NCBI GenBank assembly: GCA_048887165.1
Contig: JBHLJZ010000006.1
Span: forward strand, 8,210 to 72,209
Source: Candidatus Hodarchaeota archaeon
GTDB taxonomy: Archaea > Asgardarchaeota > Lokiarchaeia > Sigyniarchaeales > SOKP01
Reading direction: 5' to 3'
DNA length: 64,000 nt
Shown here: one piece after another, positions 3,094-50,765 of the stretch
Layout: the number at the start of each line of letters is the position of its first letter
How positions within the stretch are numbered: position 1 is the stretch's first letter
Made by a program: the position numbers and the translations under genes
Notes under the pieces: model-generated
Told to the model about the DNA's origin: nothing
The model's input: the letters and a program-made list of their open reading frames with translations, nothing else
The model's database searches: none

Positions 3094-4182
3094 TTAATAA
3101 TTTTTTCCTCTAGCAAGTATTTCCCATTTACCTATATATTCATTGTTCTTTATGACATGGACATAATCATAAAGATTAATTGTGATACATACATGAGCAG
3201 GAATTAATTCTAGTTTTTGTCCAATCTTAAAATCAGATCCAATCGCTTTTAATTGGGTATGCTCTTCATTCATGACTCTAAACTTTATTTTTGGATGATC
3301 TTTTATTATTGGCTTTCCATCTCCAATAGGAATTGCTTTTGTACCAGCATCAAGAGTAAATTCTTTTTTTCCAGTTTGGTTCTGAATTGTGCTTAAAACT
3401 GTTACAGCAGGTTCAAAAATTGGATTTACTCTATGCAAGTGTTCATCAGAAAAAACATAAGTACCTGGTTGAATTTCCGATACATCTTCAAATTTTGCAG
3501 CATACATGTATGTTGCAGAGCCTGATGTTGATACGTAATCGACATTAAAACCATTTTTACTTAACAGTTTTTTTGTTTCAACAATTTTTTTCATACATTC
3601 ATTTGTCATTAATTCTTTCTGCTCAAGATTCATCATAGGAGTCAAATGTCCTTCATATCCTTGCAATCCAACCAATTTTACCCCTGGAGTTTCTTGTATG
3701 AATTTAGCTAATTCCAACGCAGGTTCACCTGGATCCACTCCAGCTCGTCCTAATCCTAGATTTATTTCCATTAATACTTCAAGTTCTATATTTGCTCGAG
3801 TTGCGTATTTGCTTAGATCTAAAACATTTTTTTTTGAATCGACAGCACATCTTACTAATGCATATCTATTAAGCATTATCAGTCTTTTGATATGATCTGG
3901 ATCGATGACTTGATTCGCAATTAATATATCATCAATACCAGATTGAACAAAAACTTCTGCTTCTCCGACTTTAGCAACAGCAATTCCTTTTGCTCCTCCT
4001 GCTTTTAAAATCATATGTGCAATAATAGGTAATTTGGCTGTTTTTAGATGTGGTCTCAAATTTACCTTATTTTCCTTAACAAAATTTGCCATTGTCTCGA
4101 TATTTTTCTGCATAATGTCAAAATTTAGAACAAGGGCAGGCGTCGGTATTTTATCCTTCCAATTTTCGTCCAAATTTAACAA
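3094..4182 (-). CDS. Fold-type III PLP enzyme of the D-threonine aldolase / D-serine dehydratase (DSD1-like) family
   Basis: 362 aa. It has an alanine-racemase-type N-terminal barrel with LRPHLKTAK (the RPHxKTxK PLP-lysine motif of this family) and a C-terminal beta domain. Confidence 0.7.
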   Translation of the reverse strand: MLNLDENWKDKIPTPALVLNFDIMQKNIETMANFVKENKVNLRPHLKTAKLPIIAHMILKAGGAKGIAVAKVGEAEVFVQSGIDDILIANQVIDPDHIKRLIMLNRYALVRCAVDSKKNVLDLSKYATRANIELEVLMEINLGLGRAGVDPGEPALELAKFIQETPGVKLVGLQGYEGHLTPMMNLEQKELMTNECMKKIVETKKLLSKNGFNVDYVSTSGSATYMYAAKFEDVSEIQPGTYVFSDEHLHRVNPIFEPAVTVLSTIQNQTGKKEFTLDAGTKAIPIGDGKPIIKDHPKIKFRVMNEEHTQLKAIGSDFKIGQKLELIPAHVCITINLYDYVHVIKNNEYIGKWEILARGKNY

Positions 4183-4320
4183 CTCCTATAGTAGTTTATT
4201 ATTTAATATTAATTAAAACGTAATTTTCTAATTAAATTTAATCTTGAACAAAAACGTTAAATTTATTATTTAATTATTTTTTTATACCAATTAATCGAAT
4301 AATTTTGAGGTGAAATCTAA

Positions 4321-4626
4321 ATGGGAAAATTTATGATTAGAGGATGGTATCCACCAAACAAATATAAGGAATTATTGAAAGTTTATATGTCTAAGGACAA
4401 ACCTCCGTACCCAGATTTTCTAAAAAAAACTTTAAATGTAACTACTGTAAATGCAGATGGAAATTGGCAAACTTATGCATTGTATGAATTTCCAGATGAT
4501 AAAACTAAAGAGGCGACAAATGCTCTCTTGAAAAGATACGCTCTTTATACCACTGTTGAGGGTTATAGATTTGTTGTAGAAAATGTTATGGATGCTGAGG
4601 AGGGAATAAAGCTCCTTATGGGTTAA
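4321..4626 (+). CDS. Hypothetical small protein (101 aa)
   Basis: Intact ORF with ATG start and non-repetitive composition, in its own intergenic slot. I recognised no motif. Confidence 0.4.
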   Translation: MGKFMIRGWYPPNKYKELLKVYMSKDKPPYPDFLKKTLNVTTVNADGNWQTYALYEFPDDKTKEATNALLKRYALYTTVEGYRFVVENVMDAEEGIKLLMG

Positions 4627-4814
4627 ATAAAGAATATAAATTTTCTCTTCTAAAATTAACTTTTCTTTATTTTTTAATTAACAACAATCTTACAAATTTA
4701 AAAATTCTATGTTTAATTAGAATTCTATTTTGAAATAGAAAATAAAATAGAAAAAAATATTTTGTAATGTTCTTTCTTTACAATAATTTAATAATTTTTC
4801 TATGGTGTAATTAG

Positions 4815-6164
4815 GTGTCAAAAAAGTTTTCAAAAGAGCCATTGAGAGGGATGGAAGATTATTATCCACCTGACTTTCGTGAGATTAACTGGGTAATTGA
4901 GAATATCCGAGATATTGCGGAACTTTACTGTTATGAAGAGTATGAAACTCCACCGCTCGAACCTATCGAAATCTTTGCTGCAAAGTCTTCAGATGAGCTA
5001 GTAAATGAGCAATCATTCATTGTTGAAAAAAAGGAAGGAGAAAGACTAATTCTAATTCCTGAACTTACTCCTAGCTTAGCTCGTATCGTAGCTCGTAAAA
5101 GTCAAGAACTTAAAAAACCATTAAGATGGTTTTCAGTTCCAACCTGTTTCCGTTATGAACGACCTCAAAAAGGACGACGTAGGGTATTCAAACAAATCAA
5201 TTTTGATATCTTAGGTGAAAATAACCTATATGCTGATCTTGAAATATTTAATATAATAGTAGACATTTTTTCCCAATTTGGTGCAACCTCAAAACAATAC
5301 CAAATTTATTATAATAGTCGTAAGTTCATGGATGCTTTATCTAGTCTTATACTTGAAATTCCTAAAGAAAAGATTCCTTTTATTTATAAAGTATTAGATA
5401 AATCAGATAAAATGGAAGAAGAAGAGTTTGAAAAATATGTTTATGACTTTTTTGAAAACGAAATTGTTGTTCAGAATATCTTGAAATTAAAAAAATCTAA
5501 TTCAATTGAAGAGTTAATGAAAAAATTTGATAAAATTCCAGATCAATTCTATGAATCTGATGGTTATAAAGAATTAGTAAATTTTGAAAAGTTATTATCT
5601 GATGCAAACCTCTCAGAGTATTGTAGCTTCTCTTCAAGCGTTGTAAGAGGTTTAGATTATTACACGGGCATTGTATATGAAGTATATGATACTGGAAAAG
5701 AAAATATTCGTAGTATTTTTGGCGGAGGTCGATATGATGATTTACTATCCATTTTTACAGATGAATTGATACCAGCAACAGGGTTTGGATTAGGTATTCT
5801 TATGTTAACCTTATTTTTAAGAACCTATGATCTGATTCCTGAAGAAATTAAGGAGAAAGATTATACTGATACCGTCTACATAGCATCCATAAGTGAAGAT
5901 GTGTCAGTTTATGCCTTGAAATTAGCTAATTTAGTTCGTGGAGAAGATTTTCCTTGCCTTGTTGATTATCGTTTCAGCAATTTGAAAAATCAATTAAGTA
6001 AAGCTAATGAATTAGGAGTTTTGATAACATTGATAATTGGACCAAACGAAATGGAACAAAATGAAGTCACAATTAAAAATATGAAGACTCAAAAACAAAA
6101 AACTATTAAAATCGAAGATCTTATTGAAGAAATATATAATATAATAGATGAATATGAGGATTAA
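4815..6164 (+). CDS. hisS: Histidine--tRNA ligase
   Basis: 449 aa. It carries the class II motif-2 region RWFSVPTCFRYERPQKGRRRVFKQINFDILG, the motif GGGRYDDL, and a C-terminal anticodon-binding domain. The start is probably the GTG at 4815. Confidence 0.9.
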   Translation: MSKKFSKEPLRGMEDYYPPDFREINWVIENIRDIAELYCYEEYETPPLEPIEIFAAKSSDELVNEQSFIVEKKEGERLILIPELTPSLARIVARKSQELKKPLRWFSVPTCFRYERPQKGRRRVFKQINFDILGENNLYADLEIFNIIVDIFSQFGATSKQYQIYYNSRKFMDALSSLILEIPKEKIPFIYKVLDKSDKMEEEEFEKYVYDFFENEIVVQNILKLKKSNSIEELMKKFDKIPDQFYESDGYKELVNFEKLLSDANLSEYCSFSSSVVRGLDYYTGIVYEVYDTGKENIRSIFGGGRYDDLLSIFTDELIPATGFGLGILMLTLFLRTYDLIPEEIKEKDYTDTVYIASISEDVSVYALKLANLVRGEDFPCLVDYRFSNLKNQLSKANELGVLITLIIGPNEMEQNEVTIKNMKTQKQKTIKIEDLIEEIYNIIDEYED

Positions 6165-6169
6165 AAAAG

Positions 6170-6667
6170 TTGAGTGAAAATATTAGAATTGTACAATTAA
6201 AATCTATGCGTGCGGCATATTTTTACGCGTTCTCAGAGGCTCCAGAAGAGGATTCTTGGAAAAAGATGGAATTCTGGGCAATTAATTCAGGACTTTTTAA
6301 AAAAAGTTCGAAATCTCGCATTTTTGGAAGAAATATTTATCCAACAGAGAATCCAGAACCACATGGATATAGTTACTATATAACAATTACACCTGAAATT
6401 AAAGTTGATAAAGAAATATTCATTCGAATAATACCAGGAGGTCTTTATGCTCTGTCTAGATGTGAGGGTTTTGAGGAAATGAGTAATAGATGGGCTGGTT
6501 TATGGAAATGGGTAAATTCAAGTAAATATAAATACATAGGGGAAACCAAGAGCGAAGTTGGATTTGAATTAGGTTTTGAAGAACACCTTAATTGGTATCC
6601 TTTTATGGTAGAAAAAAGTGAAAAAACTATGATCTTTGATCTCATGCTCCAGTTATGGGAAGAATAG
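6170..6667 (+). CDS. GyrI-like small-molecule-binding domain protein
   Basis: 165 aa with the pattern IVQLKSMRAAYF...IFGRNIYP...YSYYITI...IPGGLYALSRCEG...W..LWKWV, typical of GyrI-like/AraC effector-binding domains. TTG start. Confidence 0.55.
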   Translation: MSENIRIVQLKSMRAAYFYAFSEAPEEDSWKKMEFWAINSGLFKKSSKSRIFGRNIYPTENPEPHGYSYYITITPEIKVDKEIFIRIIPGGLYALSRCEGFEEMSNRWAGLWKWVNSSKYKYIGETKSEVGFELGFEEHLNWYPFMVEKSEKTMIFDLMLQLWEE

Positions 6668-6723
6668 AGTCTTTTGGTAAGAATAATATTATTTAAAATA
6701 CTCATTAGAAATAAGATTATCTT

Positions 6724-7647
6724 ATGAATTTCATTGAACAATTAATCCAATCAATAAAGGAAAAACGCAGCGTTGTGTGTATGGGACTCGATCCCCGGAT
6801 AGAAAATGATGGAGAAATTCCAAAATATTTAATCGAAGAATTAGAAGATCCAAATAAAATTATATTAGAATTTAATAAAACTTTAATTGAAAATACTTTT
6901 GATCTAATCCCAATTATAAAACCTCAAATTGCCTTTTATGAAAAATATGATGCATTAACAGCATTAAAAGAAACGATAAAATTTGCGCATAAACATGATT
7001 TATTAGTCATTTTAGATTCTAAAAGAAATGACATCGCTAGCACATCTAAAGCTTATGCAGATGCAACATTTCAATTATATAATGCGGATGCTTGTACTTT
7101 GAATGCTTACTTTGGAATTGATGGGATTAGACCCTATTTAGATTATTATAAGGATAGGGGATTGTTTATTCTTGTTAAAACTTCAAACCCGAGCAGCAAA
7201 GATTTTCAAGATCTTTTTAGTGCGAGTATACGGGAAGAAATTGACTCCAAAATTCAAGTTGAAGTAACTAATATTACATTAGAGAGAAATTACATCCAAA
7301 TGGCTAAATTGGTTTATAATTGGGCAAGAGATTTACCTAAGTTTTCTGGTTTTCATAATCTAGGAGTTGTAGTTGGAGCAACTTATCCTGAGCAATTGAA
7401 AAAAGTTAGAGATCTTGTAAAAGACTCATTTATTTTGATGCCTGGCTATGGAGCACAGGGTGCACAAGCGAAGGATCTAAAATATGCATTTTTAAAAAAT
7501 GGTCTTGGTGGAATTGTTAATTCGTCAAGAGGCATAATTTATGCTTATAATAAGTCAAAAGAATACTCTCCCCATGAATTTGAAGCAGCAGCTAGAAATG
7601 AGATTATTAATATGAACAGAATTATTAATAAAGAGTTTAAACTATAA
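6724..7647 (+). CDS. pyrF: Orotidine 5'-phosphate decarboxylase, type 2
   Basis: 307 aa with VCMGLDPR, KPQIAFYE, ILDSKRNDIAST and PGYGAQG, motifs of the long (type 2) OMP decarboxylases. Confidence 0.85.
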   Translation: MNFIEQLIQSIKEKRSVVCMGLDPRIENDGEIPKYLIEELEDPNKIILEFNKTLIENTFDLIPIIKPQIAFYEKYDALTALKETIKFAHKHDLLVILDSKRNDIASTSKAYADATFQLYNADACTLNAYFGIDGIRPYLDYYKDRGLFILVKTSNPSSKDFQDLFSASIREEIDSKIQVEVTNITLERNYIQMAKLVYNWARDLPKFSGFHNLGVVVGATYPEQLKKVRDLVKDSFILMPGYGAQGAQAKDLKYAFLKNGLGGIVNSSRGIIYAYNKSKEYSPHEFEAAARNEIINMNRIINKEFKL

Positions 7648-42563: not shown

Positions 42564-42667
42564 GCAGATGTAGCCTAGATGGTAAGACGCCGGCCTCGAG
42601 TGTTCTTAAATGTACCTAGAGAGCCGGTGCGTGTAAGCGCGCGGGGGTTCGAGTCCCTCCATCTGCG
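42564..42667 (+). tRNA. tRNA-Ser (anticodon CGA) with a 21-nt intron at the canonical 37/38 position
   Basis: Cloverleaf drawn by hand. Acceptor stem GCAGATG / CATCTGC (42564-70 / 42660-66), discriminator G42667. D-loop GG at 42581-82. Anticodon stem CCGGC / GCCGG (42590-94 / 42623-27). The loop CTCGAG|A carries anticodon CGA at 42597-99, with the insertion at 42601-42621. There is a ~15-nt variable arm (class II) and the T-arm GGGGG-TTCGAGT-CCCTC. No CCA is encoded. The region stands out as a G+C-rich island. Confidence 0.85.
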
Positions 42668-42699: not shown

Positions 42700-43785
42700 A
42701 TGGCACAAAATTTAATTGTTTTAGGAGAACTCCATCAAGATTTATATTATGAAACTGATTTTTATGAGGATCTAGTAGAAAAAATTGTTTCTAATATTAC
42801 AAACTTTGTAAGATACAATCCTGATGATATAAGTAAAAAAATTCTTGAAAAATTGGTGCAAAGAGGATTCTCAGATACTCCAAAAAAAATTGAAGGCCGC
42901 TGTTTTTTCAAAAGAGGAGGTAATGGAAATAACTCTTCTGAATATTTTGCAAGTTTGGGAGTTCCAACTAAACTTATATCTGTGATTGGAAGGGGAAGTG
43001 AATGGATGATTGATGAACTGAAGGAACTAGGGATAAATACTGACTCAATATTTCAGATAGATGAAATAACACCTGTAAGTACCATTATTAAATCAAAATT
43101 TACTACAAAAATACATTTAGCTCCAAACCTAAAAGAAAAGATGAATTTTGATGGATTGAATATATCTAATGGATTATTGGATAATGCAAAGTTAATATTT
43201 TCAACTCCTATAGCACAAAAATTTATAAATTTATTTAATAGAGGTGCAAATTCTGGATTAATTACCGCCTTTAATATTGAAAGACAAAAAATTCATACTT
43301 TAGAAGAACTCTCAGAATTAATTAAGGAGAAAAAACATTTATCTTTTCTTAATGTAAAAGATGCCTATCGAATTTTAGATAAAAAACTTTCAATAGATGA
43401 AGTAGATGAAATCTTTAAACAATTTGCACAAATCCGAATTTATACTGCAGGGAAAGATGGCTCCTATGTGTTTACAGACTATCTGAAGATTTTTTATCCC
43501 GGGATAGAAGTAGAAGCAATAATTGATAGAACGGGTGCAGGCGATTGCTATGCTGCGGGTTTTTTAACTAAATTATATGAACTTGTCGAAGATAAAAATC
43601 ATTTAGAACAATTACTTAAAAAGGAAAAATTAGAAATAACTAAGAAAATTCTAACTTCATGTATTGAATACAGTACTCATGCAGCAATATATAAAATAAC
43701 TAAACAAACTACTCCAACCAAAATTGAAATGGATAATTTTATTAAAACTTTTAAAATTAAGAATAAATTAAATGTTATTGAATAA
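42700..43785 (+). CDS. PfkB-family carbohydrate/nucleoside kinase
   Basis: 361 aa with GGNGNNSS (GG motif region) and the C-terminal IDRTGAGDCYAAGF (DxxGAGD motif). Confidence 0.75.
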   Translation: MAQNLIVLGELHQDLYYETDFYEDLVEKIVSNITNFVRYNPDDISKKILEKLVQRGFSDTPKKIEGRCFFKRGGNGNNSSEYFASLGVPTKLISVIGRGSEWMIDELKELGINTDSIFQIDEITPVSTIIKSKFTTKIHLAPNLKEKMNFDGLNISNGLLDNAKLIFSTPIAQKFINLFNRGANSGLITAFNIERQKIHTLEELSELIKEKKHLSFLNVKDAYRILDKKLSIDEVDEIFKQFAQIRIYTAGKDGSYVFTDYLKIFYPGIEVEAIIDRTGAGDCYAAGFLTKLYELVEDKNHLEQLLKKEKLEITKKILTSCIEYSTHAAIYKITKQTTPTKIEMDNFIKTFKIKNKLNVIE

Positions 43786-44707
43786 TCTGTAAGATAAGAT
43801 TCTCCATTTGGGGTTTTGCAGCTTCAATCTTATCTAATACTTCAACAGTCTGTCCTAAATCTTCTTCATTTTCTTCAATTATGAATAATAAGTAGAAATC
43901 TAAATTTCCAAACTTTAGAACCTCAACTACACCAGAATATCTGTCTCCATTTTCAAACTTATCAGAAAATTCAAATAATGTCCTATTTTCATCAATTATT
44001 TTCTTTTGAGCTTCCAAATATTTATCATAAATTCTCATTTTTTCGGTAAGATGCAGATGAGGGCGGTAAAATTCTCCAATTGTTATTCCTTTTACATCAA
44101 ACAATGAAATCATAATAGCATTGTAATTTTTACTTATTTCAGCAAATAATTGTGATACCATCTCTATTTTGTCAAACAGTAAAGAAAGCCCACTTGAAAA
44201 TGCATCCATTACAGATTTAATGTCATATATAGTTGTTTCAAAGAAAAAAATATCAAAATCATGACTATATCGTGTTAAAGCTTGCTTAATTGTCAAAATT
44301 CTCTGATTTATAACTCTATCTTTAACAAGTTGGGGATCAAATTTGTGGAACAATATACAAATCGGAGGATATTCTTGCTCTTCTTTAAAGTAAAGTAATA
44401 ATCGATCAATATAATCTATAGATTCAACATATCGATCGAAATCTTGTGCATCAATGACATAAAAAACTAAATCTGTTCCTGCAATATACTTATTAGGCTT
44501 TTTTAAGTATTCTTCTCTATATTGCGATTGACCTCCAAAATCCATCCTTACAAACTCAACACCTAAAAATTTAAAGGCGTCTCGAGCAACTTTTCTTGTT
44601 GGCATTAATTTCGAGACTTCCTCTTCAAATCCAAATCTTTTTGTGATAACAGTAATTATACTAGTTTTACCTGCATTATCTAATCCTAAGAAAGCAATTT
44701 TTTGCAA
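43775..44707 (-). CDS. Rag/Gtr1-family GTPase (G domain + C-terminal roadblock domain)
   Basis: 310 aa. G-domain motifs are G1 GLDNAGKTS, G3 DFGGQSQY and a Rag-type G4 HKFD (ICILFHKFDP, compared with RagA CLVHKMDL). TTIYDIKSVMDAFSSGLSLL is collinear with RagA [19 protein letters not shown]. The C-terminal ~130 aa alpha/beta domain has the size of the Rag roadblock dimerisation domain. Confidence 0.8.
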   Translation of the reverse strand: MQKIAFLGLDNAGKTSIITVITKRFGFEEEVSKLMPTRKVARDAFKFLGVEFVRMDFGGQSQYREEYLKKPNKYIAGTDLVFYVIDAQDFDRYVESIDYIDRLLLYFKEEQEYPPICILFHKFDPQLVKDRVINQRILTIKQALTRYSHDFDIFFFETTIYDIKSVMDAFSSGLSLLFDKIEMVSQLFAEISKNYNAIMISLFDVKGITIGEFYRPHLHLTEKMRIYDKYLEAQKKIIDENRTLFEFSDKFENGDRYSGVVEVLKFGNLDFYLLFIIEENEEDLGQTVEVLDKIEAAKPQMENLILQIIQ

Positions 44708-44856
44708 TTAAATACATCACCAAAGTAACCGGATAAATGATTCCTAATTATATAATCTGCAAATTAATTATGGCACTATGGACTAATAAATACTTACATT
44801 TCTTGGGAAAAAAGGGATCTTTTTATAATAAGTTCTAATAATTAAAACGATACAGA

Positions 44857-45138
44857 TTAACCGCCTGAAATTGGAAATGATAAATAAATTTTATCTCCAT
44901 CAGTAAGTTTTGTTTTGTAATTTTTTAAATAAGTAATATTTCTACCATTTAACAAAATTACCATCTGAGGATTTAACTTTGTCTTATTTTTGTTCAATAT
45001 ACTATCATCCAAATTTTCTTTATAATCTTTAAGAAATTGTGATATAATATCTCCAACCGTCTTACCTTCATATTCAATAGTATTTTTCTTAACTTTCAAC
45101 GCAAATATATTCAGAAGATTTAATTCGACTCTTGCCAT
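44857..45138 (-). CDS. MoaD/ThiS/SAMP-type ubiquitin-like beta-grasp protein with a C-terminal Gly-Gly
   Basis: 93 aa ending in ILLNGRNITYLKNYKTKLTDGDKIYLSFPISGG. The pattern (vN......L.dGDei...PpvsGG) is characteristic of sulfur-carrier/Ubl proteins. Confidence 0.8.
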   Translation of the reverse strand: MARVELNLLNIFALKVKKNTIEYEGKTVGDIISQFLKDYKENLDDSILNKNKTKLNPQMVILLNGRNITYLKNYKTKLTDGDKIYLSFPISGG

Positions 45139-45243
45139 ATTATTTCACTTCACTAAAGCGTAATTTAGATTTTTATAATCTTCATTTCATATAAAAAATA
45201 GCTTACTTTTAAGTTTAATTTTAATATTAGATAAGATATATTG

Positions 45244-46482
45244 TTATAAAATTTTAATTTCTTCAACATCTTCAATATATTTACTAATTAAATCATCAAG
45301 TTTCAAGGAATAATATATCTCTTTCAATTTTTCATAATTAAATTCTTGATTTCTCGGTTTGAAATGGCAATAATCAAATTTTTTGAATTCGGTTGAGATT
45401 TGATTTGAAATTTCAGTGATCTTTTCAAAATCTGATCCAATATTGGGAGTAAATATTGGAAAATGGGAGAATAAGTAATTAAGAGATATTGTCTCTAGTT
45501 CTATTTCATCTGGACATAAGGTTGATTTATTTAGACTAACACCATCTATTATTCCCACTGATTTACGTAAATCAAGAAATTTAGAAATTTCCAATAATCT
45601 TGCTAAAATATTAAGCCTAACTAGCTTACAGATACTACAATAATGTTGTTTATCCTCAATTCTTTCAAAAATTCTTTCTAAAATGTGAAATAAATCCACT
45701 TTTAATAATCTAAAGTTATTTAACGGAAAATAATCTCTTATGATTTCCCAATTGGATACCCAATTTTTAAAATAATTATTATTGTTCATATTATCAAATA
45801 ATACAGGATAAATCACACAACCTCTTCTCATCATTAAAAATCCAGCAACGATATCATTTATTCTACCAATATCCATTACTATTACTTTCTTCGGAGGTTC
45901 TATCGGTAAACCTCCCCAATTATTTCTTATAATTTGGGAGAAAATGTAAGCAAATTCATCTCTAACTTCTATATATATTTTTTTGTTAGGATTAGTTAAA
46001 TTTACTTTTAAATTCAATTCTTTCATATTATCTAAAATTTCTTGTCCAACAACTTTGGCAATTTCCAATGAATTATAATCATGTTTACCAGATCTTTTTA
46101 TTCTAAGAGCGAATGAATCATGATGCTGTAAAATCTCTTTCGCTGCTTCAATTGTTCTCTCTGAAATATTTTTAAGGTTGGATGAGGTTCTAAGTGCAGG
46201 ACTTATAGAATATATTCCAAATACATTTTTTAAAATGTTAATAGCATCAATTAAATCCTCATTGTTAAAAAAAAAGAAAATTCGTGAAGAATCTTTACTT
46301 AATTGATATTTATGAAAAGAAATGTTATTGCGATTGAGTACTTTCTTAATATTATTCATTAATATCTTCAACATTCGAATCTTAACTTTTTGAGATTTAA
46401 GCCAAATTTCTCCATATCGGATTAAAATTAAATTATATTGCTTTAAAATCTGTATTTTATCCATGTTTAACATGAAATCCAA
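45244..46482 (-). CDS. ThiI-like THUMP-domain protein with a degenerate PP-loop
   Basis: 412 aa. The N-terminal ferredoxin-like and THUMP domains are present (LILIRYGEIWLKSQKV, FALRIKRSGKHDYNSLEIAKVVGQ, GGLPIEP). Where ThiI has LLSGGIDSPVAGYLMMKRG, this protein has VMDIGRINDIVAGFLMMRRG. A CxxC motif is retained (HYCSICK). Confidence 0.7.
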   Translation of the reverse strand: MDFMLNMDKIQILKQYNLILIRYGEIWLKSQKVKIRMLKILMNNIKKVLNRNNISFHKYQLSKDSSRIFFFFNNEDLIDAINILKNVFGIYSISPALRTSSNLKNISERTIEAAKEILQHHDSFALRIKRSGKHDYNSLEIAKVVGQEILDNMKELNLKVNLTNPNKKIYIEVRDEFAYIFSQIIRNNWGGLPIEPPKKVIVMDIGRINDIVAGFLMMRRGCVIYPVLFDNMNNNNYFKNWVSNWEIIRDYFPLNNFRLLKVDLFHILERIFERIEDKQHYCSICKLVRLNILARLLEISKFLDLRKSVGIIDGVSLNKSTLCPDEIELETISLNYLFSHFPIFTPNIGSDFEKITEISNQISTEFKKFDYCHFKPRNQEFNYEKLKEIYYSLKLDDLISKYIEDVEEIKIL

Positions 46483-46497
46483 ATGTTAATTGAAGAT

Positions 46498-48093
46498 TTA
46501 AATTAATGTTGCAATATGATAATTTCCTATGATCTTTACTTCTCCTGTTATTAAGTTATGCTCCTTTAAGACAACTAAACCTTTTTTATAGATTTCAATT
46601 TCATTAATAACAGCATCAAAATGTTTCGAACCAAGATTTCCTCCATTTGAAAAAATAGTATTCTCAATTTTCACATTAAATGAAATGCTCGGTGAACTAT
46701 TTAATACTAAATCTATCTGAGAACGAGCAAATTGAGATAAAACATCACCAGAGTCTATTAACTCCGTTCTCCAAACGCTCAGGGGTGTAGGAATAAGGCT
46801 ATGAAAACAACACACACCAAAAATTTTTTGATGACTAAGTGATAAAACCTTTTCAATAAACTTATTCAATCTCTTTCTTCCTATAAATCCTACATTCGAA
46901 TCCCGAGTAGTAGAATTCATTCCTTGAAAATAAAAAATATCATTCTCAAATAAAGGGTCAAAATCTCCGATATATTGACTCCAGTATTCCCAAGCTGGGG
47001 GGATAGAATCTGTATAACCCGGAACAACTATATATGGATAATTTAATTGATCCAATTTCTGCTTAGCGATTTTAAATTCCTCTCTTAAACTGTTTTTTGT
47101 CAGATTTCCAGCATGAACTACTAAATCAATATCTTTTAGCTTATTGATTTTTTCAATTGCTCTATCAAAATTAGTAGTTTTATCTTCAGAATCCTCTGAA
47201 ATTAGAGAATTAGATATTTGAATAAATCTACTAATAGGTTTTTTATGTTTATCAAGATGTAGTGGAATATAATAGTCTACTTCTCGATGTATCTCTCTCT
47301 TTGAATTATTGTCTAGAATAGGAATAATTTTAAAACTAAGATTATTACCTTCTATATCAATAATAGCGTAGCTAAACAAGTCTCGATATCTTGTTTTATT
47401 ACAAGAAAAGGTTCCTGCATTAAATATTAATAAATCTTTCTCACTACTACTTACAGTGTATAGATTAGAAGTGTGCCTATGACCATTTAAAACTAAATCT
47501 GCTTTTGTTTCTAAAAGCATCTTGAGCATATCTCCTGAATCGTCAATTGCAGAACGCTCCTTTCCAGTATTAGGAATGGGTATAAGTTGATGATGAAAAC
47601 AGACAATTTTGAATTTTTCTTCTCTTTCTTTTTTTTCCAGTCTTTCTCTAACAGCTCTAATTACATTATGATGAATAACTCCCCCTGGTAGATCAGGTTT
47701 AGTACTATCTATTCCAATTACATATATATCTTCATCTTCATACTCGTAATGCCTTCTACCAATCATTTCTTCGAAGAGTAAATATCCTACATTTAAAGCA
47801 TCATGATTTCCTATTAAAACCATAATTGGACTTTTTGAGATTGGTTCAAACTTCTTAAATTGTTCTAGCGCAAATTCATAATCTAATAAAGTCCCTAAAT
47901 GAGTCACGTCGCCCAAATGAAGATAAAGCGCAACATTCTTTATATTATTTACTTGTTCAATTCCTAAGTTAAAAGCATGCAGATTAAAAGCGCCCTCAGC
48001 ACGAGTAATATGGGTATCTGAAATAATAACTAACCTTTTTCTAGATTTAGGGCGATCCTGTGATTTTAATTTTACACTTTGTTCAGTTATCAT
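46498..48093 (-). CDS. Tandem (double) calcineurin-like metallophosphoesterase
   Basis: 531 aa. The first domain has VIISDTHI, HLGDVTHLG, LIGNHD, CFHHQL and NGHRH. The second domain is more degenerate (VVHAGNLT, VVPGYTD, CCFHSL). It overlaps the upstream gene by 11 nt. Confidence 0.75.
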   Translation of the reverse strand: MITEQSVKLKSQDRPKSRKRLVIISDTHITRAEGAFNLHAFNLGIEQVNNIKNVALYLHLGDVTHLGTLLDYEFALEQFKKFEPISKSPIMVLIGNHDALNVGYLLFEEMIGRRHYEYEDEDIYVIGIDSTKPDLPGGVIHHNVIRAVRERLEKKEREEKFKIVCFHHQLIPIPNTGKERSAIDDSGDMLKMLLETKADLVLNGHRHTSNLYTVSSSEKDLLIFNAGTFSCNKTRYRDLFSYAIIDIEGNNLSFKIIPILDNNSKREIHREVDYYIPLHLDKHKKPISRFIQISNSLISEDSEDKTTNFDRAIEKINKLKDIDLVVHAGNLTKNSLREEFKIAKQKLDQLNYPYIVVPGYTDSIPPAWEYWSQYIGDFDPLFENDIFYFQGMNSTTRDSNVGFIGRKRLNKFIEKVLSLSHQKIFGVCCFHSLIPTPLSVWRTELIDSGDVLSQFARSQIDLVLNSSPSISFNVKIENTIFSNGGNLGSKHFDAVINEIEIYKKGLVVLKEHNLITGEVKIIGNYHIATLI

Positions 48094-48835
48094 ATTTTTT
48101 CTTGTTTTTCAATTTAGCTGGATGACCCGAATATATTATATTTTCTTCTAAAATAGAATTATAATTTGTATAAGAATGAGCGGACATTTTTGCTCCTTTT
48201 TTAACTATAGTACCAGGTAAAAGCACACATTTTGCTCCTATTAAAACATCATTTTCAACAATTATTCTTTTTAATATAAACTTTTCTTGTTCAATACCAA
48301 AACTGATCAACGTGCTATTCATTCCAATAATCACATTTTTTCCGACCTCTACAAATTCAGATGATATCCAACTATTATCGCAAATTGTATTTTTTCCTAT
48401 TTTGACTCCGAAAAATCGCAAAGTAAAGCGGTTTTTAAACCAAGGAAAAGGATTTGAAGCGTTAAGAAACAACGGCCACTTTTTTATTATATTCCTTATA
48501 TTCCAATAGAAGTAATCATTATCAGATATATCCCTTTTAAATTGGCCTTCTTTGGGTAAATGGATCAGATTAACAATCTTTAACAATAAACTTGAAACTA
48601 AAATTGCACTCGATAAAAGAATATAAATAGAAATTATCGCATTTAAAGGTATGAGTAAAAGAAAAAACCAATAAAACCCTTCTTTCCATAATACTATAAT
48701 CAATAAATATTCAAATAAAGCTAGTGGAAAGCTACTTAAGACTATGATTAATACATAGAGAAAAAAATATTTCTTTCTTAGTTTTTCATCAAAAGGTACA
48801 GGTGATTCTCCTTTTAGACTTGCAGGTTGAAACAT
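48083..48835 (-). CDS. Membrane-anchored hexapeptide-repeat (left-handed beta-helix) transferase-like protein, paralogue 2
   Basis: 250 aa with N-terminal TM helices, then FGVKIGKNTICDNSWISSEFVEVGKNVIIGMNSTLI...IVENDVLIGAKCVLLPGTIVKKGAKM (hexapeptide periodicity). Confidence 0.65.
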   Translation of the reverse strand: MFQPASLKGESPVPFDEKLRKKYFFLYVLIIVLSSFPLALFEYLLIIVLWKEGFYWFFLLLIPLNAIISIYILLSSAILVSSLLLKIVNLIHLPKEGQFKRDISDNDYFYWNIRNIIKKWPLFLNASNPFPWFKNRFTLRFFGVKIGKNTICDNSWISSEFVEVGKNVIIGMNSTLISFGIEQEKFILKRIIVENDVLIGAKCVLLPGTIVKKGAKMSAHSYTNYNSILEENIIYSGHPAKLKNKKKYDN

Positions 48836-49690
48836 TTATTTTTTCTCCTCCTTTGATCCGCTTATTTCAAATCCATCTTTTACTTTTTTAATACGCTCTG
48901 CTTTTTCTTGAGATTCTTCAACAGATTGGATTGGTAGGGTCACACTTACAGGAAGACCTACATGAATTAAATCCCCTTCTAGTTCCTGTCCAATGGAAGT
49001 ATAACTATTAACTCCTAAAACCGCTCTGTCTTGCATAATCGTACCAGGAGTAATAATAGTATGGGGTCCAACTACACAAGCTTCTCCTATTTTAACTCTT
49101 TTTATTAACACTTTATCATGATATAATAAATGCGAAAAAATACATATGTTTAATGAAGTCATAGTAAAATTGCCAATTTCTACAAAAACAGGATCTATAT
49201 AACCTTCATACAACACTACGTTTTTTCCTATCCTGATACCGAAAAAACGATACACTATTATATCTAACCAAGGTAAAGGTAAGGCTCTAGCAAGCCAAAT
49301 AGGAAAATAAGCAGTCCAGAACCTTCTATGCATGTATTTCCAATCTTTACTCCCTCTTTTAAAAATGCCTTCTCTTGGACGTGAAATCTTGTTTATAAGT
49401 CTAAAAATTAACGCTGAAACCGCTATGACTGAAAATGTAAATAAAAAAATATTCCCATATATATTCAATGGCAGTAATAACCAGTAATACCATTCTGGTC
49501 TCATTATTAAGGGATAAAAATTATTCCCCGTCAGAAGATAATATAGACCATTAAAAAACCACGCATTGACAAAAACAATTATTAATCCACCAATAAATAA
49601 TTGAAGAATGATAATTAATGTAAATGGTGTCTTGTATACTCCTGAACTTGAGATATATTCAACTTCATAATCTAATTTCATTTCTCCCAA
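48836..49690 (-). CDS. Membrane-anchored hexapeptide-repeat (left-handed beta-helix) transferase-like protein, paralogue 1
   Basis: 284 aa with the same layout as 48083-48835 (FGIRIGKNVVLYEGYIDPVFVEIGNFT...KIGEACVVGPHTIITPGTIMQDRAVLG). It directly abuts its paralogue. Confidence 0.65.
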   Translation of the reverse strand: MGEMKLDYEVEYISSSGVYKTPFTLIIILQLFIGGLIIVFVNAWFFNGLYYLLTGNNFYPLIMRPEWYYWLLLPLNIYGNIFLFTFSVIAVSALIFRLINKISRPREGIFKRGSKDWKYMHRRFWTAYFPIWLARALPLPWLDIIVYRFFGIRIGKNVVLYEGYIDPVFVEIGNFTMTSLNICIFSHLLYHDKVLIKRVKIGEACVVGPHTIITPGTIMQDRAVLGVNSYTSIGQELEGDLIHVGLPVSVTLPIQSVEESQEKAERIKKVKDGFEISGSKEEKK

Positions 49691-49910
49691 ACTAACCTAC
49701 TCAAATCTATCATGAATTATTAATTATATTTTATTCCCATTAAATAAATATATTTTACATAATTGTTTTTTTAAATTTTTGATATTTTTTGATAGGATTA
49801 ATTTAAATATTTAAACTCTTATATAAAAAACAATTAAAAAACTGTTGATTTATAATATATATAAAATTAAAAATAAATTCAAGATAAAAAGATAAAAATA
49901 ATTATAAGGT

Positions 49911-50765
49911 GTGAGATTCGTGTCGATTGACTGGGCTAAAGCTGAAGAAAAGCCTGATAAGAAGCAACCTGTCGAGGGAAGATTCTTATTAGATCTTAGG
50001 GCAAAGGTAAATGATTTAGAAAAACAATTGAGTGAAACAAAGAATGAATTGAATCAGACGAAGAATGAATTAGGCTCTACAGCAAGTGAATTGCAGAAAG
50101 CAACAAACAATCTAAAATCAACAAAAACTACACTAGAGGGAACTAAATCAGAGCTTGATAATACGAAATCAGCACTATTAGAAGCTCAAAATGAACTTGC
50201 CAGTTTAACCAAACAAATCGAAAGTCTTAATTCCCAGCTTTCTGAGGTAAATACCAAAGTAAGTGAACTGGAAAGCAGTTTAGGCAATAAAGAGAGTGAA
50301 ATATCTAATTTAACTTCAGAATTAGACTCTCTTAAAAAATTGGAGAGCCTTCCGGATGAATTAGCTAGCCTGAATGCTCAAATTGAAGAATTAAACAATA
50401 AACTTGCAGAAGAAACCGAAGAGAAAAACAATCTAAATACTCAATTAGGTGAATTGAATAATTTATTATTACAAAAAGATTCAGAGCTAGAAGAATTGAA
50501 AGTTACTTTAGGTGATAAAGATAAATTAGTTGCTGCTCAAACAGCTCGTTTAGAAGAAGTAGAAGGTGAATTACAAGAGTTAAAACCTCCAGACATGGGT
50601 GCAGGAGGTTTTGCTAGTGAAGAGAGGATTACATGCCCAATGTGTGGAGCTGTTGGTCAGAATATAAAATCTGTAGAAGATAAGTCCAAAGTTTTAAGTT
50701 ATGTTGGTCATATTCCGATGTATGCTAAGAAACATGTTTGTAAAAAATGCGGATATGAATTTTAG
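49911..50765 (+). CDS. Coiled-coil protein with a C-terminal zinc ribbon
   Basis: 284 aa with a GTG start. About 200 aa form a heptad-like repetitive coiled coil (TKNELNQTKNELGSTASELQKATNNLKSTKTTLEGTKSELDNTKSALLEAQNELASL). The C-terminus carries CPMCG...CKKCG. Confidence 0.55.
   Translation: MRFVSIDWAKAEEKPDKKQPVEGRFLLDLRAKVNDLEKQLSETKNELNQTKNELGSTASELQKATNNLKSTKTTLEGTKSELDNTKSALLEAQNELASLTKQIESLNSQLSEVNTKVSELESSLGNKESEISNLTSELDSLKKLESLPDELASLNAQIEELNNKLAEETEEKNNLNTQLGELNNLLLQKDSELEELKVTLGDKDKLVAAQTARLEEVEGELQELKPPDMGAGGFASEERITCPMCGAVGQNIKSVEDKSKVLSYVGHIPMYAKKHVCKKCGYEF

Follow-up and report, generated by a model that had tools for sequence, protein, structure and literature searches.

The TtuA–TtuB mechanism of tRNA thiolation, in which a thiocarboxylated ubiquitin-like protein (Ubl) donates the sulfur, needs a PP-loop ATPase that adenylates the target base, and in the Thermus system the E1-like activating enzyme is unlinked. 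The archaeal ThiI/TtuI proteins of Methanococcus maripaludis and Pyrococcus furiosus are built from a ferredoxin-like domain at the N terminus (NFLD), a THUMP domain and a domain of the PP-loop fold with an SGGxDS motif; in Methanococcus and Pyrococcus ThiI/TtuI, a CxxC motif and a further cysteine hold the catalytic [4Fe-4S] cluster (PMC9825150). A THUMP protein can also act as the adaptor of an acetyltransferase, as Tan1/THUMPD1 does for Kre33/NAT10 (PMC11109946). Membrane-bound domains with a left-handed β-helix (LbH) occur in the ε-poly-L-lysine and δ-poly-L-ornithine synthetases (Pls/PosA), where each repeat of the PosA polymerisation domain consists of a transmembrane (TM) pair, a β-strand, two helices and a five-turn left-handed β-helix (PMC10522769). 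Here we analyse a 64,000-nucleotide stretch of an Asgard archaeal genome (hereafter the window; contig JBHLJZ010000006.1, positions 8,210–72,209 of the forward strand), in which genes for two membrane LbH proteins (LbH1 and LbH2), a two-domain metallophosphoesterase (MPE), a ThiI-like protein, a Ubl and a Rag-like GTPase follow one another on the minus strand.

An initial annotation of the window had grouped the first five of these genes into an unexplained operon that might encode a novel RNA or small-molecule modification pathway at the membrane. Our analysis describes an uncharacterised, modular cluster of known families that is not a recognisable tRNA-thiolation pathway; that it encodes a new pathway is a possibility. 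The reading that we prefer, with a probability of roughly 0.4, is that of three adjacent transcription units, the first being a four-gene acyltransferase/MPE/ThiI-like operon and the other two consisting of the Ubl gene and the Rag gene. The gene organisation is held with more confidence than the biochemistry.

Results

A conserved block of six genes in Asgard loci

The five genes described initially were found as co-oriented open reading frames (ORFs) on the minus strand at the coordinates given for them, and Pfam and NCBIfam matches bore out the domain content assigned to all five proteins. The junctions in the ORF list are as reported: LbH2 begins directly after LbH1, its end shares 11 nucleotides (nt) with MPE, and gaps of 15 nt and 105 nt follow. 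The 15-nt gap belongs to the mechanical ORF of the ThiI-like gene (45244–46482), which starts at a TTG at 46482; because the orthologues recovered by homology search and aligned are 406 residues long, the true start is probably the ATG at 46464, which widens the MPE–ThiI-like gap to 33 nt. An exact look-up of the TTG-start protein returned no record, which fits a shorter annotated start. Hydrophobic segments occur only in LbH1 and LbH2 among the five proteins, two in each. The gene for the Rag/Gtr1-like small GTPase, which the initial annotation had not included, is the sixth member of the conserved block.

Conservation of the neighbourhood was examined by a genome scan with the ThiI-like protein as query and one genome per GTDB species, which yielded 56 loci at 44–75% ThiI-like identity and one canonical crenarchaeal ThiI. 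tBLASTn with the window proteins recovered the order LbH1–LbH2–MPE–ThiI-like–Ubl–Rag throughout these related, species-level Asgard loci, and all six genes were present in 31 of the 56. In about 50 loci, the gaps measured 0–59 nt between LbH1 and LbH2, −32 to +27 nt between LbH2 and MPE and 16–75 nt between MPE and the ThiI-like gene, followed by 35–176 nt between the ThiI-like gene and Ubl and 122–255 nt between Ubl and Rag (573 nt in one locus). The recurrence of small gaps across so many loci indicates that the tight packing is no accident of the window genome. A homology search returned hundreds of close ThiI-like homologues, all from Asgard metagenome-assembled genomes (MAGs), and among the 120 matches listed for the ThiI-like query, and likewise for LbH2, nearly every one was an orthologue. 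The near-syntenic contigs (L006–L061, P0001–P0240) carry conflicting NCBI labels (Hod-, Heimdall-, Thor-, Odin-, Hermod- and Lokiarchaeota, and even 'Nanopelagicaceae bacterium'), a conflict that suggests mislabelled or mis-binned MAGs; we treat the genomes bearing the block as one low-GC, Lokiarchaeia-type Asgard lineage and do not name it firmly.

Single modules of the block have been lost in some loci. Six loci cleanly lack MPE between LbH2 and the ThiI-like gene, three lack the LbH pair upstream of MPE, and three (L048, L052 and L056) lack Ubl, the spacer between their ThiI-like and Rag genes being too short to hold it. Mapped on a neighbour-joining tree of the ThiI-like proteins, these absences correspond to about five losses of MPE, one of the LbH pair and two of Ubl. 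In the loci without MPE, the ThiI-like gene closes up to LbH2, and the ThiI-like motifs are intact in every locus that has lost a neighbour. In one locus (L015), a 3.7-kb insertion with two reverse-strand genes (3963–7456) splits LbH1 from LbH2; the inserted genes encode a 939-residue cysteine/histidine-rich protein and a 225-residue protein, and the operon genes are intact.

The flanks of the block are as syntenic as the block itself, with a divergent coiled-coil gene upstream and the genes for PfkB and ribosomal protein S25e downstream; genes for an MFS transporter and an aminotransferase are often part of the conserved flanks too. Synteny by itself is no proof of a shared pathway and may reflect descent within one clade. 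A mirror-tree analysis of rate covariation among the block proteins yielded residuals that group by evolutionary rate class and not by function.

The ThiI-like protein has exchanged the PP-loop for another conserved motif

The ThiI-like protein matches the Pfam families ThiI_fer (59.1 bits), THUMP (54.3 bits) and ThiI, and thus has the NFLD, THUMP and PP-loop-fold architecture of archaeal ThiI/TtuI. Its score against the ThiI equivalog TIGR00342 is 153.7 bits, far below the cut-off of 264.5. An AlphaFold2 (AF2) model with a mean predicted local distance difference test (pLDDT) score of 81 was matched over its full length by Foldseek to the ThiI structures of Bacillus anthracis (2C5S) and Thermotoga (4KR6), with TM-scores of 0.72–0.78. 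The description of this protein as a THUMP/PP-loop-fold protein therefore stands for the fold and the THUMP domain and fails for the signature motif of the PP-loop: in the alignment, the position of the ThiI motif SGGIDS reads DIGRIND in the window's protein, and SGGxDS occurs in none of the 55 full-length orthologues. In its place, D198-x-G-R-x-x-D204 is invariant in all 55, as are the cysteines C276, C279, C317 and C366. This invariance makes the new motif look like a selected replacement of the PP-loop and not the product of decay. Because the PP-loop is missing from every orthologue, classical adenylation-dependent thiolation by this family appears unlikely.

C276/C279 and C366 align with the CxxC motif and the further cysteine of a canonical archaeal ThiI (L062), so that, by analogy with the Methanococcus and Pyrococcus enzymes, they are putative ligands of a [4Fe-4S] cluster; C317 is an additional invariant residue that the archaeal ThiI/TtuI proteins lack. 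The basic loop of the NFLD is likewise invariant, and its residues R16, K23, K26 and K28 align with R10, K17, N20 and K22 in the RNA-contacting NFLD loop of Thermotoga ThiI. An invariant R-S-x-K-H motif on a strand of the THUMP domain is shared with B. anthracis ThiI.

The best sequence match in the PDB is PH1313 of Pyrococcus horikoshii (1VBK, E = 6e-26), which also combines an NFLD, a THUMP domain and a Rossmann-type domain without a PP-loop motif. However, PH1313 has only 307 residues and lacks the C-terminal part, its loop is unrelated to D-x-G-R-x-x-D, and the match stops at residue 235 of the 307, short of the region in which the ThiI-like protein carries the CxxC motif and its other conserved cysteines.

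A profile search of 1.84 billion representative sequences recovered three full-length clusters (50% identity) at 480–628 bits and nothing else above 234 bits; by this measure, the family is a tight clade with a sharp boundary against other ThiI-like proteins. Among the best 150 representatives matched by the profile (P0248–P0389), SGGxDS is present in only about one quarter, and degenerate PP-loops were seen in many PH1313-like (~300 residues) and ThiI-like (~380 residues) archaeal proteins. Judged by these motifs, a ThiI without a PP-loop is a broad archaeal phenomenon.

The GRxxD loop and the full set of four cysteines recur in two distant proteins from GC-rich Asgard genomes (27% identity). 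Genes for Ubl, MPE, LbH and Rag proteins are all absent from their loci (L064 and L065), so the linkage of the ThiI-like gene with Ubl is not kept there. In both (L064, 9376–15675; L065, 501–6292), the gene for the ThiI-like relative is preceded by one for a Pat-like GNAT acetyltransferase and followed by one for a GDPD phosphodiesterase. L065 alone has a PHP-type phosphoesterase gene, a DUF2284 gene and three tRNA genes directly downstream; at the corresponding position, L064 carries a low-GC insertion. That an acetyltransferase and a phosphodiesterase turn up together in both is suggestive, as a lead from two related loci. Apart from canonical haloarchaeal ThiI, a metagenome scan with the two distant proteins yielded only one more degenerate ThiI-like protein. 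Its gene, which encodes an SGSPQSS loop, lies on a metagenome contig of 52% GC (L067, 6556–10411) side by side with a MoaE–MoaD pair, the gene of a TATA-binding protein and AroA; the MoaD there is apparently an ordinary molybdopterin-synthase Ubl that neighbours the ThiI-like gene by chance.

Two membrane LbH proteins and a metallophosphoesterase with a pseudo-domain

LbH1 and LbH2 are paralogues (32% identity over 187 residues, E = 9e-35). LbH2 matches Hexapep at 31.2 bits (cut-off 27), TIGR02353 (the Pls/PosA terminal domain) with E = 4.5e-13 and the YvoF-type family NF058585 with E = 1.2e-12. LbH1, which is conserved in 49 loci, falls short of the Pfam cut-off for Hexapep (19.4 bits) and matches TIGR02353 with E = 7.9e-9; its hydrophobic segments span approximately residues 18–54 and 71–102. 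The AF2 model of LbH2 (pLDDT 74) has long helices at residues 24–51 and 62–91, followed by a short strand, two helices and then the LbH coils. The closest PDB structures found by Foldseek for its soluble part are maltose/galactoside O-acetyltransferases, for example 3NZ2 (E = 9e-3). From these matches and the model, LbH1 and LbH2 are hexapeptide-repeat acyltransferase-like proteins that are predicted to be anchored in the membrane.

In the LbH2 model, the elements follow one another as in a single repeat of the polymerisation domain of Pls/PosA, and both LbH proteins have TIGR02353 as their top NCBIfam match. The scores of 48 and 34 bits, however, lie far from the family cut-off of 423, and the likeness to Pls/PosA is no better than that to YvoF-type proteins, WcaF and maltose/galactoside O-acetyltransferases. 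In contrast to the three fused repeats of Pls/PosA, the locus has two separate single-repeat genes and neither an adenylation nor a carrier domain.

MPE matches Metallophos at 73.9 bits in two stretches and just passes the cut-off of the YfcE family (56.5 versus 56.25 bits). The N-terminal domain shares with YfcE/MJ0936-type phosphoesterases the complete set of metal motifs, D26-x-H28, G61-D62, G95-N96-H97-D98, H167-H168 and G204-H205-x-H207, which are invariant in 14 aligned orthologues and fully conserved in an alignment of 44 loci. At the equivalent positions, the C-terminal domain reads SNS, GN, GYTD and SSPS; it fails four of the five motifs and keeps a lone histidine. The protein had been described as a double metallophosphoesterase, and two Metallophos stretches are indeed present; by its motifs, however, MPE is a tandem of one active-type N-terminal domain and one degenerate pseudo-domain. 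The degenerate half (window 46498–47250) has many invariant residues of its own, for example H327-x-G-N-L, P358-G, D447-x-G-D and N465..P468-S..S471-F-N, and their number indicates a conserved pseudo-enzyme domain rather than a decaying one. The sole PDB sequence match of MPE, obtained through a segment of the C-terminal domain, is the GpdQ-type (glycerophosphodiesterase-type) phosphohydrolase 2DXL/2ZO9. Unlike the YfcE/MJ0936- and GpdQ-type enzymes, MPE joins an active domain and a pseudo-domain in one chain of 531 residues. Profile searches of PDB sequences with MPE and LbH2 gave generic family matches only, and no close relative of MPE that is solved or named was found.

Ubl and Rag genes probably lie outside the operon proper

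The Ubl matches ThiS at 28.4 bits and just passes the cut-off of moaD_arch (TIGR01687, 49.8 versus 49.5 bits). Its PDB matches are Ta0895, Haloferax SAMP1 (2M19), a MoaD-related protein of Thermus and a SAMP1 homologue of Methanosarcina. Like SAMP1 and archaeal MoaD, it is a β-grasp protein of about 90 residues ending in GG; the terminus reads ISGG, and the GG is invariant in 49 orthologues. Unlike them, it scores below the cut-off of the SAMP1 equivalog (44.5 versus 60 bits) and has a fixed and unusual place between the genes for the ThiI-like protein and the Rag-like GTPase; it adjoins the ThiI-like gene in 47 of 50 checkable loci. The absence of an E1, a rhodanese and a cysteine desulfurase from the cluster was confirmed, and MoaE is likewise absent. 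Linked MoaE, probed with the MoaE of L067, was found neither in the window nor in the 10 kb around any locus. A MoeB probe, which makes for a weak test, likewise detected no MoeB/ThiF-like E1 in the window or the fetched loci. The Rag-like GTPase matches Gtr1_RagA (PF04670) over residues 3–209 at 81.2 bits (cut-off 22) and Arf at 55.6 bits, and its gene lies downstream of the Ubl position in every locus that extends far enough.

Elements resembling the B recognition element and TATA box (BRE/TATA-like) precede LbH1, Ubl and Rag in the window (Table 1). Across the loci, the motif upstream of LbH1 was found in 29 of 48 (shuffle mean 14, maximum 23) and that upstream of Rag in 30 of 44 (mean 9, maximum 16), mostly 60–92 nt before the start codon. 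Upstream of Ubl, 22 of 50 loci, the window among them, have the motif TTAAAA-N5-14-TTTAT (shuffle mean 1.9, maximum 7); it occurs in none of 52 spacers between MPE and the ThiI-like gene. Runs of five or more T within 60 nt downstream, many of which AT-rich spacers yield by chance, were counted after LbH1 in 2/50, LbH2 in 0/51, the ThiI-like gene in 33/55, Ubl in 36/48 and Rag in 29/44 loci. A scan for sigma-70 promoters and hairpin terminators, models unsuited to an archaeon, did not rise above shuffles.

The 35–176-nt gap, the conserved BRE/TATA-like element and the T-runs after the ThiI-like gene together suggest that Ubl is probably outside the operon proper. Of the five-gene operon proposed initially, the four tightly spaced genes from LbH1 to the ThiI-like gene remain, and Ubl probably has to be separated from them; similarly, the Rag gene is probably a separate transcription unit. 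From this pattern we infer a four-gene operon, LbH1–LbH2–MPE–ThiI-like, followed by separately promoted Ubl and Rag genes.

The spacers between Ubl and Rag (window 44708–44856) contain, in many loci, a GTAAG-N-ATTTATTA element and a second block, CTATAAATA..TTGTAG, and a leader of about 60–90 nt before the Rag start codon is also conserved in many loci; the second block and the leader could be a regulatory element of the 5' untranslated region. A similar GTAAG...TTTAT element also precedes Ubl.

Table 1 Genes of the conserved block and promoter-like elements in the window
Feature	Position	Strand	Description
LbH1	48836..49690	-	284 aa; first gene of operon
LbH2	48083..48835	-	250 aa
MPE (two-domain calcineurin-like metallophosphoesterase)	46498..48093	-	531 aa
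ThiI-like protein	45244..46464	-	406 aa from ATG at 46464
Ubl, SAMP1/MoaD-type	44857..45138	-	93 aa, C-terminal GG
Rag/Gtr1-like small GTPase	43775..44707	-	310 aa; downstream neighbour, co-oriented with the other five
BRE/TATA-like element upstream of LbH1	49740..49760	-	ATGTAAAATATATTTATTTAA; 49 nt before start codon
BRE/TATA-like element, ThiI-like–Ubl spacer	45189..45212	-	TTAAAAGTAAGCTATTTTTTATAT; 50 nt before Ubl start codon
BRE/TATA-like element, Ubl–Rag spacer	44783..44801	-	AAATGTAAGTATTTATTAG; 75 nt before Rag start codon

Neighbouring features and searches for described systems

The divergent neighbour of LbH1 (window 49911–50765, plus strand) encodes a coiled-coil protein of 284 residues with a C-terminal CxxC...CxxC zinc ribbon; this gene lies beside LbH1 in nearly every locus and is duplicated in some (L001, L029 and L059). 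Between the S25e and PfkB genes, a tRNA of 104 nt (42564–42667, plus strand) was detected by Rfam at 43.6 bits and missed by ARAGORN; it is probably an intron-containing archaeal tRNA. It was the sole Rfam match and lies outside the cluster, and no known RNA element was found in the spacers.

Current annotation names the proteins of the cluster generically only, and defence, RNA-family and literature searches returned no description of the cluster or of the ThiI-like family. The initial annotation had noted that the MPE and LbH companions belong to no known thiolation or sampylation pathway, and the cluster as a whole matched no described pathway in the libraries or literature searched. PADLOC models gave marginal partial matches only, to PDC-S10 (MPE) and LeoA (GTPase), and these together with the stable housekeeping neighbourhood led us to reject an anti-phage defence system.

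Discussion

In the reading that we prefer, LbH1 and LbH2 would be paralogous subunits, each with two TM helices and an LbH domain, that assemble into a membrane-anchored hexapeptide acyltransferase, and the soluble MPE would be an accessory phosphoesterase that can be lost. The ThiI-like protein, with D-x-G-R-x-x-D in place of the PP-loop, would be unable to adenylate U8 by the known PP-loop mechanism and would most likely serve as an RNA-recognition or Fe-S module without an adenylation step. One possibility is that it acts as a THUMP adaptor for the acyltransferase, as Tan1/THUMPD1 does for Kre33/NAT10. The two systems share only their logic, a THUMP protein without the expected catalytic motif encoded with an acyl- or acetyltransferase, and the genes of the distant ThiI-like relatives also lie next to one for a GNAT acetyltransferase. 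Kre33/NAT10 is a soluble GNAT-helicase without homology to the membrane LbH proteins, and RNA acylation at this locus would be an analogy only. In the second unit, the SAMP1/MoaD-type Ubl would probably carry sulfur or act as a modifier in a general role, with activation by an E1 that is not linked to it, and the third unit would consist of the Rag-like GTPase gene with its own promoter-like element.

Several observations weigh against this arrangement. The promoter and terminator assignments come from motif statistics, and the AT-rich sequences compared are related to one another, which inflates the counts; four loci have only 35–41 nt before Ubl, which fits co-transcription there. Ubl is nearly always adjacent to the ThiI-like gene and the Fe-S-type cysteines fit sulfur transfer, so that a functional link between these two proteins is possible. 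Binding of tRNA is not assured, because the aligned ThiI-like protein has other residues at several positions where Thermotoga ThiI contacts the CCA end (K104>A, Y119>L, S123>K and R141>T), and we know of no precedent for a membrane acyltransferase that acts with a tRNA-binding protein. Finally, since the unrelated flanks are equally syntenic, the members of the operon might be functionally independent.

This last point leads to the main rival explanation, in which the genes are neighbours by descent: LbH1 and LbH2, with or without MPE, would modify a membrane lipid or surface glycan, and the ThiI-like protein, an ordinary MoaD/SAMP-type Ubl and the Rag-like GTPase would be unrelated to them. 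The chemistry could be dephosphorylation and O-acetylation of a lipid of the polyprenyl-glycerol-phosphate type, as in the PcrB/YvoF route of Bacillus, and the matches of the LbH proteins to the YvoF-type heptaprenylglyceryl-phosphate O-acetyltransferase and to sugar O-acetyltransferases, as well as the glycerophosphodiesterase-type structure matched by MPE, agree with it. The shared gene order of the flanks across the clade, the independent loss of single modules and the apparently fortuitous MoaD–MoaE pair beside a degenerate ThiI-like gene in L067 point in the same direction. However, the genes from LbH1 to the ThiI-like gene still overlap or abut in loci at 44–75% ThiI-like identity, the ThiI-like gene closes on LbH2 after loss of MPE instead of drifting off, most loci lack a promoter-like element ahead of it, and the nearby GNAT and GDPD genes of the two distant relatives hint at a recurring association. 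We consider descent alone less likely than the preferred reading.

Thiolation, the analogy drawn in the initial annotation, seems less likely still. Here, a Ubl thiocarboxylated by an unlinked E1 would hand its sulfur to the ThiI-like protein at the Fe-S site for thiolation of tRNA or another substrate, and MPE and the LbH proteins would carry out further steps. The locus does resemble TtuA–TtuB and NcsA–SAMP2/Urm1 in that a gene for a GG-ended MoaD/ThiS-fold protein lies beside one for a PP-loop-superfamily protein with Fe-S-type cysteines, and the E1 is unlinked in Thermus as it appears to be here. In most loci, Ubl is the gene that comes next after the ThiI-like gene, the GG terminus and the CxxC-plus-cysteine set with a fourth loop cysteine are invariant, Foldseek reaches TtuA–TtuB complexes through the catalytic domain of the ThiI-like model (E ~1e-4), and the lack of a nearby MoaE means that the Ubl is not obviously half of a molybdopterin synthase. 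Unlike TtuA, however, the ThiI-like protein has a THUMP domain in place of the zinc fingers, and the PP-loop that would adenylate the target is missing from all 55 orthologues, and the window's protein scores far under the ThiI equivalog cut-off. Further points against the TtuA–TtuB analogy are the promoter-like element that Ubl has to itself, the three loci in which an intact ThiI-like gene has no adjacent Ubl and the distant relatives that share the motifs and lack a Ubl nearby; the rate-covariation test, which is crude and weak, gave no positive signal for the Ubl and the ThiI-like protein.

Two more elaborate schemes fare worse. It is quite improbable that the four operon genes encode a membrane machine without a described counterpart, in which a ThiI-derived Fe-S protein lacking the ATP-binding loop uses its THUMP/NFLD 'ruler' to present a tRNA acceptor end, perhaps that of an aminoacyl-tRNA, to a two-subunit Pls/PosA-like enzyme for acyl or aminoacyl transfer, with the neighbouring Ubl and Rag-like GTPase coupling the process to sulfur or nutrient status. 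Least probable is conjugation of the Ubl at the membrane, in which LbH1/LbH2 would join its activated C-terminus (a thioester or acyl-adenylate) by an amide bond to a lipid head group or protein amine, an Atg8-like lipidation without E2 or E3 that is possibly tied to the Rag-like GTPase: Pls/PosA C-terminal domains, whose repeats combine two TM helices with an LbH, do form amide bonds from a carrier-bound thioester, the GG terminus is invariant and the GTAAG...TTTAT element is common to the Ubl and Rag upstream regions, but the LbH proteins resemble ordinary O-acetyltransferases just as strongly, the cluster has no activating enzyme, three loci keep Ubl without the LbH pair and three the pair without Ubl, and Ubl appears to be transcribed separately.

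If the genes of the block are neighbours by descent only, the finding is a routine one, a conserved run of genes with poor annotation. If the four genes of the preferred operon do cooperate, an Asgard lineage would have turned a tRNA-thiolation enzyme into something else, a clear case of re-use of a tRNA-modification scaffold that has gained a new loop, kept its Fe-S cysteines and become coupled to a membrane acyltransferase. The ThiI-like family also offers a handle on the wider group of proteins without a PP-loop, of which PH1313, solved in 2005, is still without a function. The functions of Rag proteins in Asgard archaea are unknown (PMC10933270), and the constant placing of a SAMP-like Ubl gene beside a Rag-like GTPase gene provides a cheap lead for eukaryote-like signalling in these organisms.

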